From: Octopus sinensis
Lineage: Eukaryota
Assembly: GCF_006345805.1 (NCBI RefSeq)
Contig: NW_021836163.1
Location: 4,229 to 68,228 of the forward strand
Direction of reading: 5' to 3'
Length of the DNA: 64,000 nt
Of this stretch, positions 22,750-58,822 are shown piece after piece. The position numbers and the translations under genes were made by a program. The notes below the pieces were generated by a model. The model was not told where the DNA came from, made no database searches, and worked only from the letters and a program-made list of their open reading frames with translations. How positions within the stretch are numbered: position 1 is the stretch's first letter; every line of letters starts with the position of its first letter.

Positions 22750-23066
22750 GTCCCCCGTAACTTAGCGGTTCGGCAAAAAAAAACCGATAGAATAAGTCCT
22801 GCGGTCGATTTGCTCGACTAAAAGCGGTACTCCAGTATGGCCGCAGTCAAATGACTGAAACAAGTAAAAGAATAAAAGAAAGAAATTAGTGGCATTCCGT
22901 CCACCGTTAGTTATGTTCTGAGTTCAAATTCCGCCGTGGTCGACTTTACTTTTCCTCCTTTCGGAGTTCATGAAAAATAAGTACCAGTTACGCACTGGGG
23001 TCGATGTACTCGACTATCCCCCTTCCATCCCAAATTTCAGGCCTTGTACCTATAGTAGAAAGGATT
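22750..23066 (+). mobile_element. Two adjacent SINE pieces, the second ending in an (ATT)n tail
   Basis: Tail ATGACTGAAACAAGTAAAAG near 22860, then GAGTTCAAATTCCGCCG...GTAGAAAGG-ATTATT. Confidence 0.7.
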
Positions 23067-23099
23067 ATTATTACCATTATTATTATTATTATTATTATT

Positions 23100-23672
23100 G
23101 AGTGAGAGAGCAGTGCATGCCATCAAAGTGACACTGGGGTAAAATATACGAAGCCCAATATACCCATCATGACTACCCGTCTGATAAGGGTACACCAGGC
23201 ACATGCATCACAACCATATGTGCGCGACATGGTGATCTCATATCAAGATAAACAGCACATGACCTTGCAGGTGGGGCCCAGTTAGAATTTTCTTCAGGTT
23301 GAGTAGCCCATCCCGCTGAAAAGGTCCCTGAATAAGGGTTGTTAAGGATGTTGAAAGAACCACCCATGTTTCCAGAGGTGAATTATTCAAACCCCAAAGA
23401 CTCCCTCTCAACACATGGCTATGATGCTCCCCCACTACTTCTGCTCGTGATCAGAGATGCACATATCGTCAGCCACTAAGGGACATGCTCAACTGGTTAA
23501 GGTCAAACAACTGACAAGCAAATCTGTGGTATTGAGCAGAATATTTGCTGTAGCCCATCTTTTATACCAAGACAAAACAATGTACATGATAACACTTCCA
23601 ATCAGTTAAGATCAGAAGCCATGAGAGCCACTGCCTGGTACTGCATCAGGAGAGTTAGGTACTGCATCAGGG

Positions 23673-30688: not shown

Positions 30689-30883
30689 TACATACATATA
30701 TGTATATATGTGTATATGTATAATCCAGAATCCACGAGAATCCAAGGTAAATATTAATTTATTTACAATAAAAGTCAAGTTAGTGTATTAAAAATTGTTA
30801 AAACAAGAAAATATCACTATTTCAGGCATTGGCTCTTTATCAAGATTGAGGCTAGAGAAATGACAAAAGGGAGAAAAGAATTT

Positions 30884-31101
30884 CCCACTACTTCTGCACG
30901 TGATCAGAGATGCACATATCGTCAGCCACCAAGGGACATGCTCAGCTGGTTACGGTCCAACAACTGACAAGCAAATCTGTGGTATTGAGCAGAATGTTTG
31001 CTGTAGCCCATCTTTTATACCAAGACAAAACAATGTACATGATAACACTTCCAATCAGTTAAGATCAGAAGCCATGAGAGCCACTGTCTGGTACTGCATC
31101 A
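30884..31101 (-). mobile_element. (AAT)n-targeted element, 5' portion only
   Basis: Matches the first ~215 nt of 46011-46564; (ATT)n on its 5' side. Confidence 0.85.
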
Positions 31102-31202: not shown

Positions 31203-31753
31203 GAGTGAGAGAGCAGTTCATGCCATCAAAGTGACACTGGGGTAAAATATACGAAGCCCAATATACCCATCATGACTACCCGTCTGATAAAGGTACACCA
31301 GGCACATGCATCACAACCATATGTGCGCGACATGGTGATCTCATATCAAGATAAACAGCACATGACCTTGCAGGTGGGGCCCAGTTAGAATTTTCTTCAG
31401 GTTGAGTAGCCCATCCCGCTCAAAAGGTCCCTGAATAAGGGTTGTTAAGGATGTTGAAAGAACAACCATGTTTCCAGAGGTGAACTATTCAAACCCCAAA
31501 GAATCCCTCTCAACACATGGCTATGATGCTCCCCCACTACTTCTGCTCGTGATCAGAGATGCACATATCGTCAGCCACTAAGGGACATGCTCAACTGGTT
31601 AAGGTCAAACAACTGACAAGCAAATCTGTGGTATTGAGCAGAATATTTGCTGTAGCCCATCTTTTTATACAAGACAGAACAATGTACATGATAACACTTC
31701 CAATCAGTTAAGATCAGAAGCCATGAGAGCCACTGCCTGGTACTGCATCAGGG

Positions 31754-31754
<1 letters not shown>
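31203..31754 (-). mobile_element. (AAT)n-targeted element, full length
   Basis: Reverse complement of 46011-46564, with (ATT)n on both sides. Confidence 0.9.
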
Positions 31755-36446: not shown

Positions 36447-36448
<2 letters not shown>

Positions 36449-38382
36449 ATCCCTAAATGCTGGTGATGTAAAAATTTCGTGTGGCATTTTCCAGGGTGAC
36501 TCACTGTCACCACTCCTCTTTTGTTTATCCTTAATACCTCTCTCAAAGCTGCTCAATGACGCGCAGTACGGGTATAAAATGTTTGATAAAAATATAAATC
36601 ATCTCATTTACATGGATGATTTAAAGCTTTTTACAAAAAATGACCAACAACTCAAGGGCTTACTAGCGATAGTCAAACAATTCAGTGACGACATCAGAAT
36701 GCAATTCGGCCTCGATAAATGTTCAAAGGCTACCTTTATCAAAGGAAAAATGACAGAAACATCTAACGTTAACCTTGACCAGCAGAATGTCATAAAAGAA
36801 CTAGACCCAGCGGAGAGCTACAAGTACCTAGGGGTAATTGAAGGGAACGGAATAAGGCATTCAGAGATGAAGGAAAGGATCAGGAGAGAATGCTATCGAA
36901 GAGTGAGAGCAATACTCAAGACAGAGCTGAATGCAAGAAACAGGATCGAAGCGATCAATGCATTAGCCATACCAGTCGTGACTTACAGTTTCAATATTGT
37001 TAACTGGTCAATTACTGAAATATGTCAGCTCGACAGAAAAATAAGGAAACTGTTGACAATGCATAGAATGCACCACCCTAAGGCAGATACAGAACGACTC
37101 TATCTGCCAAGAAAAGAGGGAGGCCGTGGTCTTTGCAACTGGCAATAACAATGAAGATTGCTACAATTGGCCTAGACACCTACCTAAAAACTCTGAGGAC
37201 TGGATGTTAAAACTTGTCTCAAAACATGAAAACAAGAAGCATCATACTCAGTCACAAAACAGGCAAAGGAATATCTAAGTGAATTCCGAATACAACCAAT
37301 TTCGGAATTAGAGATAGACATACAAGAAACAAACACAGAAAAAGCTAGGCGCATGAAAACCCGTGCCAAAACTGCGGCCTTAGATATTCTGAATAATAAA
37401 TGGCAAGAAAAACCTCTCTATGGCAATACCCAAAGAGAGCGAATAATGCAGATATCGACAAAGCCCTGACCCATCAATGGCTAATGGCCTCTGGCTTAAA
37501 ATCTGAAACAGAGGGGTTTATCATAGCAGCTCAAGATCAATGCCTCCCAACAAGAAACTACCAGGCCAACATATTAAAGAACGGCAGTAGCCCAACATGT
37601 CGTGTATGCCGACAACAAAATGAAACCATTGACCATGTTGTCTCCAAATGCAGTCTTCTAGCGCCTACAGAGTACCTCAGTAGGCATGATAGAGCAGCAC
37701 AATATATTCACTGGGTAATTTGCAAAAACCTGGATTTGCCCCATGAAAAAAACTGGTGGAAACACAATCCACCTCCTGTGCTTGAAAATGACCACATCTC
37801 ACTCCTCTGGAACTTCACCATTCAAACTGACAGGAAGATAGATGCAAATAGGCCAGACATCATATTGAAAGACTTCAGACAAAGAACATGCCTCCTCATT
37901 GATATGACTGTCCCAATCGATATAAACGTATCTGTCAAGACCTACCAAAAACTGAGCAAATATAAAGATCTTGAAATAGAAATCAGCAAAATGTGGAAGC
38001 TGAATACTAAAACAATACCTGTTGTCATAGGTGCCCTGGGAATGATAGCGAAAGGGACTGATTGCTACCTAACTCAGATACCAGGAAACCCCAAAATGGC
38101 AGAAATTCAAAAGATAGTGCTCATGGGAACTGCTCATATCCTACGCAAAATACTCTCTATGTAATCCCAAGGTTTAAAACAAACTTTTTTTTATTTTTAT
38201 TTATTATTTTTTTTTGTTATTTTTTTATTTTTATGTATTAGACATTCACTAGTACAACACCAAAAAAAAAACAACAAAAAAACCCAAATATATGGCACAG
38301 AACTTCTAACCTGTTGTCTCTTGAGGTCTCTGGGTGAGACTTGGAGCCAACTTGTACAGACATAAAGCAAAAGTCAAACATA

Positions 38383-38383
<1 letters not shown>
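36447..38383 (+). mobile_element. R4/Dong-clade retrotransposon (family B), 5'-truncated
   Basis: GIFQGDSLSPLLF, HLIYMDDLKL, CRVC..ETIDHVVSKC, RHD, RPDII..LIDM and KLSKY; (AAT)n on both sides. Confidence 0.93.
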
Positions 38384-43608: not shown

Positions 43609-43609
<1 letters not shown>

Positions 43610-45091
43610 GTATTCAGCATGCAAGCATGAAAGAGAAAATCAGGAAGGAATGTTATAGGAGAGTTCGTGCAGTCCTGAAATCTGAACTAAATGCACGTAA
43701 CAAGGTGTTAGCTATAAATTCCTTAGCAGTTCCAGTTGTTACTTATAGCTACAATGTGTTGAACTGGAATATGAGTGAAGTAAAGAATATAGATAGAAAA
43801 ATACGCAAGCTGCTGAGTTGTAATAGGATGCACCACCCAAAGGCAGACGTAGATCGCCTTTACCTTCCCAGAGCCCAAGGAGGTCGAGGCCTGATCCAAT
43901 TTGAACTAGCTTACAAAACAACCACAATTGGACTGACCAAATATCTCGAAATATCGAATGACTGGATGCTAAAGCTCGTGGAAAATCACGAGAGACGTAA
44001 GAAGCTTCATTCTATCATAAAGGAAAGCAAAAAATTTGCTATTGATCTCGTGCAGGATACCCAAACAGAACAACCCGAGGGAAGTACGGCAACTATTGTT
44101 GCAAAGAAGGTGAAAATGATGGCAATGAAAAAAGCGCACGAGCAATTGGCTGATAGGTGGGAGGAGAAACCTCTGCACGGCAAATATGTGACCCGCAGCA
44201 AACAAGCTGATGTTGACCAGAAGCAAACCCATCAGTGGCTGCGGAGCTCAGAGCTAAAAGCAGAGAGCGAAGGTTTCATCCTGGCTGCTCAAGATCAAAG
44301 CCTATTAACCCGGAACTACCAGGCCAATGTGATGAAAAATGGAGCAGACCCAAAATGCCGATTCTGCAACGACATGATTGAAACAGTGGACCACCTAATC
44401 TCTGGATGTAAAGTCTTAGCTCCAGTGGAGTATAAATTAAGACATGACAGAGTTGGCCAATATCTCCACTGGCTAATAAGTCGGCATTACAATATCAAAA
44501 CTGCCGACAAGTGGTATAATCACCACCCTGAGGCTGTAACTGAAGGAGAAAATGTAACCATTCTGTGGGACTTTCCAATACATACAGACCGAACCATCAA
44601 GGCCAATAAACCAGATATTGTTGTGAAAGACCAAAACAATAAAGTTTGCTTATTGATCGACATGAGCATCCCCTGTGATCATAATATCTCAGCGAAAGAG
44701 TTTGACAAGCTCAGAAAATATAAAGACCTACTCATTGAAATTGAGAAAATGTGGCATCTCAAGGCGGTTACAATACCAGTGATCGTAGGAGCACTAGGAA
44801 TGATCAAGAAGGGAACCGAAAATTAAATGAGAATGATCCCTGGCTTACCATCCCTGCAAGAAGTGCAAAAGATTGTCTTAACTGGTACATCACACGTATT
44901 GAGAAGAGCATTGTCGATGTGAGAACTGTTGCTGCTCATGTATTTTAATTTAACTTAAAAAAAAAAAAAAATGAACGAACTATTGAGTTTGGTTTAATGG
45001 CCTACCAATGTATACTATGAGTTTCTTTGCCCTAGGAGTCGGGAAGATACTCGGCAAGAAATGGAAGCAAATTTGAAAGAAGAAAAAAAAA
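43609..45091 (+). mobile_element. R4/Dong-clade retrotransposon (family C), 5'-truncated
   Basis: 399-aa ORF with GGRGL, PLHGKY, CRFC..ETVDHLISGC, RHD, KPDIVV..LIDM and KLRKY; premature stop at 44824; (AAT)n on both sides. Confidence 0.93.
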
Positions 45092-45140
45092 GTAATAATA
45101 ATAATAATAATAATATAATAATAATAATAATAATAATAAC

Positions 45141-45333: not shown

Positions 45334-45883
45334 TGATGCAGTACCAAGCAGTGGCTCTCATGGCTTCTGATCTTAACTGATTGGAAGTGTTATCATGTAT
45401 ATTGTTTTGTCTTGGTATAAAAGATGGGCTACAGCAAATATTCTGCTCAATACCACAGATTTGCTTGTCAGTTGTTTGACCTTAACCAGTTGAGCATGTC
45501 CCTTAGTGGCTGACGATATGTGCATTTTTGATCACGAGCAGAAGTAGTGGGGAAGCATCATAACCATGTGTTGAGAAGGATTCTTTGGGGTTTGAATAAT
45601 TCACCTATGGAAACATGGGTGTTTCGTTCAACGTCCTTAAACAACCCTTATTCAGGGACCTTTTGAGTGGGATGGGTTACTCGATCTGAAGAAAATTCTA
45701 ACTGGGCCCCACCTGCAAGGTCATGTGCTATTTATCTTGATATGAGATCACCATGTCGCGCACATATGGTTGTGATGCATGTGCCTGGTGTACCCTTATC
45801 AGACGGGTAGTCATGATGGGTATACTGGGCTTCGTATATTTTACCCCAGTGTCACTTTGATGGCATGCTCTGCTCGCTCACTC
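45334..45883 (+). mobile_element. (AAT)n-targeted element, near full length
   Basis: Lacks the first 4 nt; ends CACTC|AAT. Confidence 0.9.
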
Positions 45884-45913
45884 AATAATAATAATAATAA
45901 TAATAGTGATAAC

Positions 45914-46010
<97 letters not shown>

Positions 46011-46564
46011 GCCCTGATGCAGTACCAGGCAGTGGCTCTCATGGCTTCTGATCTTAACTGATTGCAAGTGTTATCATGTACATTGTTTTGTCTTGGTATA
46101 AAAGATGGGCTACAACAAATATTCTGCTCAATACCACAGATTTGCTTGTCAGTTGTTTGACCTTAACCAGTTGAGCATGTCCCTTAGCGGCTGACAATAT
46201 GTGCATCTCTGATCACGAGCAGAAGTAGTGGGGAAGCATCATAGCCATGTGTTGAGAGGAATTCTTTGGGGTTTGAATAATTCACCTCTGGAAACATGGG
46301 TGTTTCGTTCAACATCCTTAAACAACCCTTATTCAGGGACCTTTTGAGTGGGATGGGCTACTCGACCTGAAGAAAATTCTAACTGGGCCCCACCTGCAAG
46401 GTCATGCGCTGTCTATCTTGATATAAGATCACCATGTCTCGCACATATGGTTGTGATGCATGTGCCTGGTGTACCATTATCAAACGGGTAGTCATGATGG
46501 GTATACTGGGCTTCGTATATTTTACCCCAGTGTCACTTTGATGGCATGCACTGCTCTCTCACTC
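46011..46564 (+). mobile_element. (AAT)n-targeted element, full length (554 bp)
   Basis: AAT|GCCCTGATGCAGTACC...CTCTCTCACTC|AAT; no substantial ORF. Confidence 0.92.
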
Positions 46565-46621
<57 letters not shown>

Positions 46622-46641
46622 TAATAATGATAATAATAAAT

Positions 46642-47195
46642 GCCCTGATGCAGTGCCAGGCAGTGGCTCTCATAGCTTCTGATCTTAACTGATTGCAAGT
46701 GTTATCATGTACATTGTTTTGTCTTGGTATAAAAGATGAACTACAGCAAATATTCTGCTCAATACCACAGATTTGCTTGTCAGTTGTTTGACCTTAACCA
46801 GTTGAGCATGTCCCTTAGTGGCTGACGATATGTGCATCTCTGATCACGAGCAGAAGTAGTGGGAGAGCATCATAGCCATGTGTTGAGAGGAATTCTTTGG
46901 GGTTTGAATAATTCACCTCTGGAAACATGGGTGTTTCTTTCAACATCCTTAAACAACCCTTATTCAGGGACCTTTTGAGCGGGATGGGCTACTCAACCTG
47001 AAGAAAATTCTAACCGGGCCCCACCTGCAAGGTCATGTGCTGTTTATCTTGATATGAGATCACCATGTCGCGCACATATGGTTGTGATGCATGTGTCTGG
47101 TGTACCTTTATCAGACGGGTAGTCATGATGGGTATATTGGGCTTCGTATATTTTACCCCAGTGTCACTTTGATGGCATACACTGCTCTCTCACTC
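46642..47195 (+). mobile_element. (AAT)n-targeted element, full length (554 bp)
   Basis: Same ends as 46011-46564, with independent substitutions. Confidence 0.92.
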
Positions 47196-47216: not shown

Positions 47217-47705
47217 AAGGTCACAGAAAAAGAGAAAGCAACCATACTCTGGGATATGCCGATACACACAGATAGAGAAATCAAGGCCAACATACCAGAT
47301 ATAGTTGTCAAAGATCATGAAGAAAAAAATGCTTTCTAATTCATGTATCAATACCGGCAGATGACAACGTGTCTCTAAAAGAAATGGAGAAACTCTCAAA
47401 ATACAAAGACCTGGAAATAGAGGTAACCAGAATGTGGAATCTAAAAACAGAAACAATTCCTATCATAGTAATTGCATTAGGCATGATAAAAAAATATTCA
47501 GACAAATACATAACAAAAACACCAGGACTCACAAACACATATAACATACAGAAAATTGCACTACTAGGCACTGCACACATCCTACGCTGAACACTTTCCA
47601 TACAATAACCATCAGAGCATCACAACAAATCACAACACGTACCCAAGGCACACAGAGCTGCGCTCGGTAGTGAAGTGAAAGCACGCTATAAAAATAAAAC
47701 TACTG
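47217..47705 (+). mobile_element. R4/Dong family A 3' fragment
   Basis: Highly similar to 2132-2621, with the same ACTACTG|AAT end. Confidence 0.92.
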
Positions 47706-47864: not shown

Positions 47865-48131
47865 AGTTGTTTGACCTTAACCAGTTGAGCATGTCCCTTA
47901 GTGGCTGACGATATGTGCATCTCTGATCACGAGCAGAAGTAGTGGGGGAGCATCATAGCCATGTGTTGAGAGGAATTATTTGGGGTTTGAATAATTCACC
48001 TCTGGAAACATGGGTGGTTCTTTCAACATCCTTAAACAATCCTTATTCAGGGACCTTTTGAGCGGGATGGGCTACTCAACCTGAAGAAAATTCTAACTGG
48101 GCCCCACCTGCAAGGTCATGTGCTGTTTATC
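47865..48131 (+). mobile_element. (AAT)n-targeted element, internal fragment
   Basis: Truncated at both ends, with (AAT)n on both sides. Confidence 0.85.
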
Positions 48132-48208: not shown

Positions 48209-49483
48209 TACGCAAGCTGCTGAGTTGTAATAGGATGCACCACCCAAAGGCAGACGTAGATCGCCTTTACCTTCCCAGAGCCCAAGGATGTCGAGGCCTG
48301 ATCCAATTTGAACTAGCTTACAAAACAACCACAATTGGACTGGCCAAATATCTCGAAATATCGAATGACTGGATGCTAAAGCTCGTGGAAAATCACGAGA
48401 GACGAAAGAAGCTTCATTCTATCATAAAGGAAAGGAAAAAAATTGCTATTGATCTCGTGCAGGATATCCAAACAGAACAACCCGAGGGAAGTACGGCAAT
48501 TATTGTTGCAAAGAAGGTGAAAATAATGGCAACGAAAAAATGGCTGATAGGTGGGAGGAGAAACCTCTGCACGGCAAATATGTGACCCGCAGCAAACAAG
48601 CTGATGTTGGCCAGAAGCAAACCCATCAGTGGCTACGGAGCTCAGAGCTAAAAGCAGAGAGCGAAGGTTTCATCCTGGCTGCTCAAGATCAAAGCCTATT
48701 AACCCGGAACTACCAGACCAATGTGATGAAAAATGGAGCAGACCCAAAATGCCGATTCTGCAACATGATTGAAACAGTGGACCACCTAATCTCTGGATGT
48801 AAAGTCTTAGCTCCAGTGGAGTATAAATTAAGACATGACAGAGTTGGCCAATATCTCCACTGGCTAATAAGTCGGCATTACAATATCAAAACTGCCGACA
48901 AGTGGTATAATCACCACCCTGAGGCTGTAACTGAAGGAGAAAATGTAACCATTCTGTGGGACTTTCCAATACATACAGACCGAACCATCAAGGCCAATAA
49001 ACCAGATATTGTTGTGAAAGACCAAAACAATAAAGTTTGCTTATTGATCGACATGAGCATCCCCTGTGATCATAATATCTCAGCGAAAGAGTTTGACAAG
49101 CTCAGAAAATATAAAGACCTACTCATTGAAATTGAGAAAATGTGGCATCTCAAGGCGATTACAATACCAGTGATCGTAGGAGCACTAGGAATGATCAAGA
49201 AGGGAACCGAAAATTATATGAGAATGATCCCTGGCTTACCATCCCTGCAAGAAGTGCAAAAGATTGTCTTAACTGGTACATCACACGTATTGAGAAGAGC
49301 ATTGTCGATGTGAGAACTGTTGCTGCTCATGTATTTTAATTTAACTTAAAAAAAAAAAAAAAATGAACGAACTATTGAGTTTGGTTTAATGGCCTACCAA
49401 TGTATACTATGAGTTTCTTTGCCCTAGGAGTCGGGAAGACACTCGGCAAGAAATGGAAGCAAATTTGAAAGAAGAAAAAAAAA
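48205..49483 (+). mobile_element. R4/Dong family C, second 5'-truncated copy
   Basis: Near-identical to 43797-45091 but with a different truncation point, a small deletion near 48540 and an intact C-terminus ...LRRALSM. Confidence 0.93.
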
Positions 49484-49600: not shown

Positions 49601-50040
49601 TGCTCAATACCACAGATTTGCTTGTCAGTTGTTTGACCTTAACCAGTTGAGCATGTCCCTTAGTGGCTGACGATATGTGCATCTCTGATCACGAGCAGAA
49701 GTAGTGGGGGAGCATCATAGCCATGTGTTGAGAGGGATTCTTTGGGGTTTGAATAATTCACCTCTGGAGACATGGGTGGTTTTTTCAACATCCTTAAACA
49801 ACCCTTATTCAGGGACCGTTTGAGCGGGATGGGCTACTCAACCTGAAGAAAATTCTAACCGGGCCCCACCTGCAAGGTCATGTGCAGTTTATCTTGATAT
49901 GAGATCGCCATGTCGCGCACATATGTTTGTGATGCATGTGTCTGGTGTACCTTTATCAGACAGGTAGTCATGATAGGTATACTGGGCTTCGTATATTTTA
50001 CCCCAGTGTCACTTTGATGGCATGAACTGCTCTCTCACTC
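49601..50040 (+). mobile_element. (AAT)n-targeted element, 5'-truncated
   Basis: Starts ~110 nt into the consensus and ends CACTC|AAGAATAAT. Confidence 0.88.
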
Positions 50041-57338: not shown

Positions 57339-57896
57339 GCCCTGATACAGTATCAGGCAGTGGCTCTCGTGGCTTCTGATCTTAACTGATTGGAAGTGTT
57401 ATCATGTACATTGTTTTGTCTTGGTATAAAAAGATGGGCTACAACAAATATTCTGCTCAATACTACAGATTTGCTTGTCAGTTGTTTGACTTTAACCAGT
57501 TGAGCATGTCCCTTAGTGGCTGACGATATGTGCATCTCTGATCACGAGCAGAAGTAGTGGGAGAGCATCATAGCCATGTGTTGAGAGGAATTCTTGGGGG
57601 TTTGAATAATTCACCTCTGGAAAAATGGATGTTTCGTTCAACATCTTTAAACAACCATTAATATTCAAGGACCATTTGAGCAGGATGAGCTACTCGACTT
57701 GAATAGATTTCTAACTGGGCGCCACCGTCAAGGTGATGCGCTGTTTATCTTGATATGAGATCACCATGTCGCGCACATATGGTTGTGATGCATGTGCCTG
57801 GTGTACCATTATCAAACGGGCGGTCATGATGGGTATATTGGGCTTCGTATATTTGACCCCAGTGTCACTTTGATGGCATGCATTGCTCTCTCACTC
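57339..57896 (+). mobile_element. (AAT)n-targeted element, full length, more diverged
   Basis: GCCCTGATACAG...CTCTCTCACTC|AAT. Confidence 0.9.
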
Positions 57897-57926: not shown

Positions 57927-58605
57927 TACATAAACTACAGAATAAACAACACAGTAGAAAGTGATAAGTGAAGAATCTGTGGACAAAACGGTGAAACCGT
58001 ATGGCATATTACCAGCCATTAGCCCAGAAGGAATATAAGAGACGCCACTACAATATAGCCAGGCTTGTCCATTTGACACTTTGCAACAGGTATGGACTTG
58101 ACAGAGCAAAAACTTGGTACGACCACAAACCTGAAGGCATCGTCGAAAATAGAAATGCAAAGATCCTATGGGATTTTATGATTCAGTGCGACCATGAGAT
58201 AGAGGATAGGAAGCCGGACATAGTGTTAATTGAGAAAGAAAACAAACTATGCTGGATCATAGATATAGCATGCCCAGCTGACAACAAGATATGCGATAAG
58301 GAAGAAAGAAGAGTCGAGAGATATGACAGGTTAGCTTAGGAAGTTAAGCAGTTGTGGTCGATGAAAAAGGTGGTGGTAGTACCAATAATTATCGGAGCCC
58401 TGGGAACAGTGAGTAAAAATCTTGAGAAGTACGTGGAACAAATAGGGGCTGCAATAAGGGTGGAGCACTTCCAGAAAACATCACTGCTTGGAACCGTTTG
58501 AATACTTCGGAAGGTGCTCGAAAAATAAGAGGTGTTACTTTAGTTCATTGGTAGTGAACAGCTCACACTGTAGTACATCTCCAGCGTTAGAAGCTGTGCA
58601 AAGGC
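57927..58605 (+). mobile_element. R4/Dong-clade retrotransposon (family D) 3' fragment
   Basis: RICGQNGETVWHI, YKRRH, KILWDF, RKPDIV..IIDIACP and VPIIIGALG. (AAT)n precedes it and (GAT)n(AAT)n follows. Confidence 0.88.
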
Positions 58606-58692
<87 letters not shown>

Positions 58693-58693
<1 letters not shown>

Positions 58694-58772
58694 TGCAGTT
58701 CCAGAAAGTGGCTCTCATGTCTTCTGATCTTAACTGACTGGAAGTATTATGTACATTGTTTTGTCTTGGTAT
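58693..58772 (+). mobile_element. (AAT)n-targeted element, old 5' remnant
   Basis: ATGCAGTTCCAGAAAGTGGCTCTCATG...TTGTCTTGGTAT directly after (AAT)n. Confidence 0.75.
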
Positions 58773-58822
58773 GAAATTTAACTAAAATAACCGTCTATGT
58801 AACATACGTAACGTATATATAC

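Follow-up and report, generated by a model that had tools for sequence, protein, structure and literature searches.

The element and its copies in the window

The window analysed here is a 64,000-nucleotide (nt) stretch of Octopus sinensis DNA (contig NW_021836163.1; positions are counted from the first letter of the stretch), and its subject is a short non-coding repeat that an original prediction, made from the letters alone, took to be a parasite of Dong/R4 target-specific retrotransposons sitting only in (AAT)n. BLASTN with 46011-46564 as the query finds exactly the ten copies claimed for the 64-kb window, at 87-96% identity to the query. The reference copy is full-length and occupies 46009-46564 on the plus strand (556 nt counting the ATG at 46009), between an upstream (AAT)n target tract at 45884-46008 and a downstream one at 46565-46639. 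Also on the plus strand are a copy without the first few nt (45334-45883), a full-length copy (46642-47195), a copy truncated at both ends (47865-48131, nt 141 to about 407), a 5′-truncated copy (49601-50040), a more diverged full-length copy (57339-57896, 93%) and a 5′ fragment (58693-58776, nt 7-93). The minus strand carries a full-length copy with a short 5′ duplication (23100-23650), a 5′ half only (30881-31101, nt 5-225) and a further full-length copy (31203-31754).

All ten copies adjoin AAT-type tracts in the same relative polarity; the tracts of the three minus-strand copies are flipped along with them, which upholds the polarity originally claimed. Seven of the ten end at exactly CACTC/AA, as had been noted, the 3′ end being missing from the copies at 30881, 47865 and 58693. 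For the three minus-strand copies, the starts listed at the outset are low coordinates rather than 5′ ends. The unit had been drawn as 554 bp from 46011; the element itself stands, and its true 5′ end is probably the ATGCCC two bases further out at 46009, giving a unit of 556 nt, because tandem 5′ duplications in other copies restart from that A.

Neighbouring copies in the window are ~4-5% apart. Head-to-tail runs of the element occur at 45334-47195 and at L021/L022 (G000:C4486:68452-69700), the latter consisting of two near-identical copies at 695-bp spacing that are probably a tandem duplication rather than two insertions. Elsewhere, 19-23-nt pieces of the element 5′ end form tandem runs of 7-10 units (L122:1282-1522; G000:C1:28378736-28378864), a possible source of minisatellites through repeated template restarts.

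Dong-type retrotransposons lie among these copies on the plus strand. Family B is represented by a 5′-truncated copy in the same AAT cluster as the reference copy (43609-45092, with a 3′ hairpin, described below, at 45018-45067) and by a second 5′-truncated copy (48211-49482, hairpin 49410-49459), and families C (36447-38383, hairpin 38308-38357) and A (47217-47705, with a hairpin variant detected by neither of the models used below) by one 5′-truncated copy each. Family G1 is older and has a decayed 3′ end (57995-58605, hairpin 58526-58575). Genome-wide, a first look gives about 83,000 candidate Dong-like C-termini. Families A, B and C are young, with 93-99% amino-acid identity among their best matches, and families D and E are old, with 73-88% among theirs. 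Uninterrupted Dong frames of 1,119 and 1,235 amino acids contain a reverse transcriptase domain (RVT_1), and their best solved relatives in the PDB are R2 proteins; the protein also shows what we take to be CCHC and PD-type motifs. The R4/Dong label of these helper families is based on target and protein class, not on a tree with named references. Dong elements are described as targeting TAA repeats, including one from a snail (PMC3812793). Dong families B and C share a block rich in GAT/GGT repeats within otherwise different 5′ untranslated regions (UTRs; L157, L159, L171, L173).

Insertion at AAT repeats across the genome

We counted exact 15-mer and 24-mer matches in the 2.72-Gb genome (G000). 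The last 15 nt of the element occur 15,964 times, compared with 4 and 0 matches for reversed-pattern controls, and 14,630 of these occurrences (91.6%) are directly followed by AAT; the suggested check of the flanks across the genome thus did not refute the original prediction. In a systematic sample of 800 kb, 2.8% of the positions have AAT after them by chance, and the background for an AAT tract of at least 14/18 purity is 0.3% (overall range 0.3-1.7%). An internal 24-mer is found 12,382 times. The 5′ 15-mer has 10,172 exact occurrences, 5,608 of them with AWWAAT directly upstream and the remainder including tandem duplications and other junction variants. Eleven copies in 80 evenly spaced 10-kb stretches of the 13 largest contigs (one match to the transposon family described below excluded) extrapolate to ~37,000 copies in the genome (Poisson about 19,000-67,000, a range that clustering widens), and copies are dispersed across many contigs and both strands.

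On contig C1 we took, without selection, the 40 loci that come first in the list of 3′-anchor matches; they contain 42 consecutive anchors, of which 41 have an AAT tract downstream and 36 upstream. The common 5′ end is reached by 24 of the 42 copies, and none continues into a shared open reading frame (ORF). Six copies lack an upstream tract: in two of them further element sequence occupies that place, another has a short tract, and the remaining three are genuine exceptions. Among these three, the second copy of L257 (nt 282 onward) is 5′-truncated and runs straight into coding sequence of Dong C, AAT being absent from the junction, through either a template switch or a later deletion. Upstream AAT meets the element at a wide variety of truncation points (nt 51, 56, 78, 81, 95, 101, 120, 141, 461 and others) and is for that reason target DNA and not only a tail. 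The insertion point lies just 5′ of AAT, the same junction phase as in Dong families A and C, and where a strong Dong hairpin is present within about 1 kb (7 of 40 loci) it is on the strand of the element in all seven cases.

Target-primed reverse transcription, as known from R2-type elements, is expected to leave a fixed 3′ end, a variable 5′ end and tandem repeats on the 5′ side. Both hallmarks of that process, the fixed 3′ and the variable 5′ end, are present in the element copies, and the fixed 3′ end, 5′ truncations and 5′ tandem duplications together fit it. Several target tracts (window 23050-23100; L023, L024, L025, L107) turn out to be (ATT)n tails belonging to a different, very common repeat that lies on the opposite strand, presumably a tRNA-derived short interspersed element (SINE), and one SINE therefore seems to create targets for both Dong and the element.

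A conserved hairpin in Dong 3′ UTRs

From 204 Dong C-terminal matches we obtained 175 3′ UTRs, having dropped 29 that had no following AAT tract. Most Dong families have a common hairpin layout: the lower stem leads through a C-G pair to a 3-nt/1-nt internal loop whose last base is A, and above it the 6-bp upper stem closes in a 5-nt loop in which the second base is G. In 19 hand-picked copies from eight families, 86% of cells are paired and 11 of 14 pairs show changes on both sides, compared with 30-54% pairing in slid controls; families A, H, I, J and K were excluded from this alignment because their hairpin spacing departs from it. Of 32 held-out metagenomic relatives, chosen among 80 metagenomic loci for reaching the C-terminus and by size, 11 have a match to the 19-copy model in their 3′ UTR region, 8 of them at E<0.001. 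Moreover, 14 metagenomic relatives, selected for having the motif, covary alone (84% paired, 13 of 15 pairs). Families D, E, G1 and G2 also have a second stem, CCAG…CTG, a short way ahead of AAT, and so do 9 of the 27 metagenomic UTRs that close with AAT-type repeats. The metagenomic Dong relatives with the hairpin come from unrelated metagenomes and are at L297-L376 (e.g. L331:2859-2935, L319:2901-2949); a first metagenome scan had returned no matches, and no Rfam family or paper turned up for their 3′ hairpin.

A Dong-like module near the 3′ end of the element

Both features of the Dong 3′ UTR have counterparts in the element. Hairpin 1 (46463-46513, plus strand; element nt 453-503) has the Dong-type lower stem, C-G pair and 3-nt/1-nt internal loop, a 6-bp upper stem with one bulged A, and a 5-nt NGGNN loop. 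The second 3′ stem, CCAG…CTG (46527-46553, plus strand), ends 11 nt before the AAT target, as it does in Dong D, E, G1 and G2, and the candidate module accordingly spans 46463-46553. In the neighbouring copy at 45334-45883 the hairpin is intact (45782-45832, plus strand) and is the best, though a weak, match of both Dong-only models within that copy: the model of host Dongs places it top at 14.2 bits (E 0.0018) and the model of non-host relatives places it top at 11.6 bits (E 0.011), with all 15/15 pairs formed. The latter score is level with that of a real Dong G1 hairpin (11.4 bits). A descriptor derived from Dong has five matches in 800 kb on both strands, namely four element copies and one Dong D, and was passed by 10 of 40,000 simulated 550-mers; the test for the second stem was passed by 287 of 40,000. 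Element nt 425-504 fold with z -4.5 on the sense strand, and all three common non-CpG variants within the hairpin keep pairing, which lends slight support.

The statement in the original prediction that there is no visible 3′ homology to Dong 3′ UTRs is correct for linear sequence and falls short for structure, where a weak to moderate match exists. Its appeal to an unknown recognition signal was likewise too pessimistic, given the candidate Dong-type hairpin module at 46463-46553, while mobilisation in trans by Dong remains something that we infer. We judge the match between the Dong and element hairpins to be real; a role in recognition is predicted from it.

At window position 46476, young copies mostly carry U at the conserved C-G position, which yields a U-G pair as in Dong family C and may hint, at this single site, at a change of helper. 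A 5′ hairpin named at the outset (46045-46068, plus strand), CTTCTGATC-TTAACT-GATTGGAAG, is present in copy 45334, the reference copy having a C at 46065; it is the second-best, weak match of the non-host model R2 in copy 45334 (9.9 bits). Some apparent likenesses were rejected. Two single-test p values of 0.005 and 0.01 from local alignment to Dong ends are attributed to chance, the alignments being in unrelated registers that do not match the 3′ end, as is a higher reverse-strand score for one Dong family, which comes from a gappy low-complexity alignment. A reading of the motif as an H-type pseudoknot was dropped in favour of a simple extended hairpin once more families were compared.

Head, coding content and middle segment

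The element has no long ORF, stops breaking all six frames as had been claimed. The absence of a tRNA head is also borne out: ARAGORN reports 0 tRNA genes in the window, and no tRNA, 5S, 7SL or snRNA head is among the Rfam matches at E<=10, a search that could miss a strongly decayed head. No Rfam family is significant in the element, the six matches at E<=10 being far below gathering thresholds and mostly on the AAT flanks. Inspection by eye alone picks out a stretch resembling an A box near nt 24 and three internal T4 runs, and no B box. No hammerhead family, which would mark a retrozyme, is matched in the element at E<=10 in Rfam. Neither an Rfam match to the hepatitis delta virus (HDV) ribozyme nor an HDV-like fold starting at the element 5′ end was found, the latter with a loose descriptor (29 of 30 shuffles matched somewhere) that had no positive control. 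The ends are not complementary, in agreement with the claim that terminal inverted repeats are absent. A likeness by eye of one element frame to the Dong C-terminus was rejected, since a profile of 44 C-termini gives <=0.1 bits (null 95th percentile 1.8) and TBLASTN gives E>0.6.

Loose ends that recur at 46116 and 46280 across three sequencing runs led to a family of MITEs (miniature inverted-repeat transposable elements) of ~435 bp, with terminal inverted repeats and apparently TA-flanked, which shares the middle of the element (46116-46280, plus strand; element nt ~101/106-270) at 82-92% identity. Element nt ~101-270 are present in 20 of 20 MITE copies (L217-L236; e.g. L065:105-590, G000:C1:90000200-90000620), which carry 165-170 nt of the element middle and are 4-12% from their majority. 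The two majorities differ at 5 of 165 sites, and MITE alleles are commoner in old element copies (for example 9/40 vs 1/65), which indicates that the exchange between element and MITE is old.

Age, folding and distribution

In a set of 48 unselected copies, divergence from the column majority ranges from 2 to 17%, with about 20 copies under 4%; many copies of the element are only 1-3% from their majority. Nine sites separate older from younger copies, and this separation together with the wide spread of divergence points to long-lived activity. The sense strand folds better than its shuffles (z -2.4), and the opposite strand does not (+0.9). An antisense polarity was accordingly rejected, since it is on the stated strand that the truncations fall at the 5′ end, and no other strand outfolds its shuffles. 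Strong folding is also seen on the sense strand at window 46260-46339 (element nt 250-329; z -4.2), a region in which several of the sites that distinguish old from young subfamilies cluster. Near-identical sequence occurs in 15 runs from 10 studies under four organism labels. In run X15, whose RNA nature is a guess, contigs extend over all 30 element bins and indicate neither a discrete RNA nor a strand. In run X24, 11 of 12.9 million reads fall on the element, some with the MITE junction, despite a species label shared with strong carriers; this run was not used as evidence.

Probable mobilisation by Dong proteins and its alternatives

We consider it likely, at a probability of about 0.72, that this high-copy non-coding element of AAT microsatellites is copied in trans by Dong proteins, which are predicted to read the hairpin module in its last ~100 nt. 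The proposal of a non-autonomous retroelement using Dong-type machinery is supported by the same target, polarity and junction phase, by the 5′ truncations and duplications, and by the lack of a tRNA head. A full-length copy would be transcribed into an RNA of ~556 nt, possibly running into AAU repeats, and a Dong protein would bind the 3′ module of that RNA. Its restriction-like endonuclease would nick the AAT tract and reverse transcription would start at the fixed CACTC end; the junctions are those observed, and the chemistry is modelled on R2. Early stops and template re-starts would yield the 5′ truncations and 5′ tandem duplications that are found, and element copies accumulate in tracts that also contain Dongs, in the same orientation as these. 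The 3′ module probably goes back to a Dong lineage whose 3′ UTR is too rare or too diverged for alignment, and has been combined with 5′ and middle parts of foreign origin.

Several observations weigh against this interpretation. The hairpin of the reference copy scores 4 bits, has two private stem mutations (46476 and 46483) and is not top-ranked in its own search. Model scores are 10-16 bits, compared with a background that reaches 15 bits in 100 kb; the independent, non-host model gives E 1.3 over the whole window, and the E-values of the hairpin models rest on a short calibration. The first base of the upper stem is U in the element and G in nearly all Dongs. The descriptor rates are optimistic because the descriptor was written after the resemblance had been noticed. 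After correction for multiple testing, none of the 13 Dong 3′ ends compared shows linear homology to the element, and no coding remnant of Dong was detected in the element. Finally, the loop most resembles the old families D, E and G, which have no young copies among their best matches (73-88%). Since many element copies are 1-3% from their majority and D, E and G are old, a recent helper must be family A, B, C or an unseen one, and the helper may possibly have been switched over time.

The low model scores and the U at a near-invariant G of the upper stem would also be expected if Dong proteins mobilised the element through relaxed recognition, or through pairing of a read-through AAU tail, with the hairpin likeness being chance or a functionless relic. 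Family A's own hairpin escapes both models, from which it follows that Dongs tolerate variation. We regard this account as improbable, although it is the strongest competitor, given two motifs at the expected distance from the end, the specificity of the descriptor and the formation of all 15 pairs; it would moreover predict many unrelated sequences with an equally sharp AAT junction. Less probable again is an origin as a short internally deleted element (SIDE), with both ends derived from one extinct or unsampled Dong family and the mechanism otherwise as proposed above. R2 SIDEs arise by internal deletion and diverge over tens of millions of years (PMC3414825), the 3′ module of the element is Dong-like, and the comparison of 5′ ends covered families A, B and C and not the old families D-G. 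Set against this origin, BLASTN with the element at 20 loci with long A, B and C copies gave, among the matches listed, only element copies and short chance matches, with none to the element 5′ end (A's own 5′ end may be missing from these loci). The descriptor search gave no HDV-like fold at the start of the element, its middle segment is common to a MITE and not to Dong, and every inspected 5′-anchored locus ran on into element sequence.

Mobilisation by a long interspersed element (LINE) with an apurinic/apyrimidinic-type endonuclease (RTE, CR1 or L2) and an AAT-type tail, so that the AAT link would merely reflect annealing of tail and target, appears quite unlikely. RTE elements can generate microsatellite families (PMC2887409) and octopus annotations contain large numbers of such LINEs (PMC13282606, Table 1). 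However, the 3′ junction is base-precise and in the Dong phase, the tail module is Dong-like, and no such LINE was seen upstream of the 42 C1 copies. Nor does any foreign sequence recur at the 3′ region among the listed loose ends of two whole DNA-type runs (2,156 weaker rows lie beyond these), in which the MITE junction is prominent. Head-to-tail runs and the 165 nt shared with the MITE could recall a DNA transposon, a satellite unit or a longer LINE that makes its own AAT tail and of which only the 3′ UTR is seen, but these readings are contradicted and we give them hardly any weight. As described above, 24 of 42 copies stop at one 5′ end with no shared ORF continuation, so that the suggested check for a longer LINE came out negative, and more than half of the 10,172 exact 5′ 15-mers (5,608) have AWWAAT directly upstream. 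Copies are dispersed on many contigs and both strands, window neighbours are ~4-5% apart, and the ends are not inverted repeats.

RNA choice by site-specific retrotransposons with a restriction-like endonuclease has been worked out mainly for R2. Mobilisation by Dong would make the element a natural foreign RNA that appears to use a Dong signal at very high copy number, and the element and the Dong families together give a compact, covarying candidate signal of ~100 nt for the Dong/R4 group, with which recognition, cis preference and helper switching become directly testable and a minimal template for microsatellite-targeted insertion could be defined. The element also gives a name to a sizeable and probably unclassified share of the genome's repeats and explains the nested stacks of Dong and element in AAT tracts. 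More tentatively, and with more doubt than confidence, it might represent an undescribed class of animal retroposon, a headless and promoter-less RNA that keeps only the shape of the Dong 3′ module and has been active across successive Dong families to give tens of thousands of targeted copies; the two-stem module, which Dong relatives of unrelated organisms have in common, would then be the minimal portable signal able to send any RNA to AAT repeats.

Relation to known elements

EhLINE1 of Entamoeba histolytica is an R4-clade LINE with a restriction-like endonuclease, and its partner EhSINE1 is about 550 bp long. Like the octopus element, EhSINE1 is short and non-coding and has no identified small-RNA precursor; its Pol III boxes are described as weak, and a partner LINE moves it, as is likely for the octopus element (PMC2996970). 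About 70 bp of sequence are common to EhSINE1 and EhLINE1 (PMC2996970), whereas the element matches its probable helper in predicted structure only. EhSINE1 is described as lacking targeted insertion (PMC1635306) and numbers 445 copies (PMC2657916), whereas the element is locked to AAT and is present in tens of thousands of copies, in an animal.

The octopus SINEs OK, OR1, OR2, tRNA-Core and tRNA-Deu and the Ceph-SINEs are likewise short, very abundant, non-autonomous retroposons (PMC4758252, PMC8967140). They have tRNA heads and none was detected in the element, a separation made on descriptions and not on alignment. In Octopus vulgaris, 893 SINE families that were active recently have been reported as unclassified, alongside 51 families of Dong-R4 (PMC13282606), and the sequence library of that study may contain the element. 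In the full-text literature searched, a coverage outside which most subscription papers and Repbase/Dfam lie, no Dong-dependent SINE and no such 3′ module is described.

With the Dong elements themselves (Bombyx Dong, DongAg and the snail DongBg) the element shares the TAA-repeat target (PMC3812793), and it has the junction phase and polarity of the local Dong-type families and their 3′ hairpin layout. Unlike Dong it has no ORF, and the self-cleaving HDV-like 5′ ribozyme of Bombyx Dong (PMC3774820) has no counterpart found in it. The R2 SIDEs and R2/R1 hybrid SIDEs of Drosophila are non-autonomous parasites of a site-specific non-LTR (long terminal repeat) element that keep the 3′ end and the target of their helper (PMC3414825), and the element, too, has the same target site as its probable helper, AAT. 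SIDEs retain an HDV-like ribozyme and alignable helper ends and are described as rare residents of rDNA, whereas neither the ribozyme nor alignable ends were found in the element, its target is a microsatellite and its middle is shared with a MITE. Having neither the head of a classical SINE nor the ribozyme of a SIDE, it is filed as neither; it is likely to be a SINE-like parasite mobilised by Dong, akin to EhSINE1 and to the R2 SIDEs.
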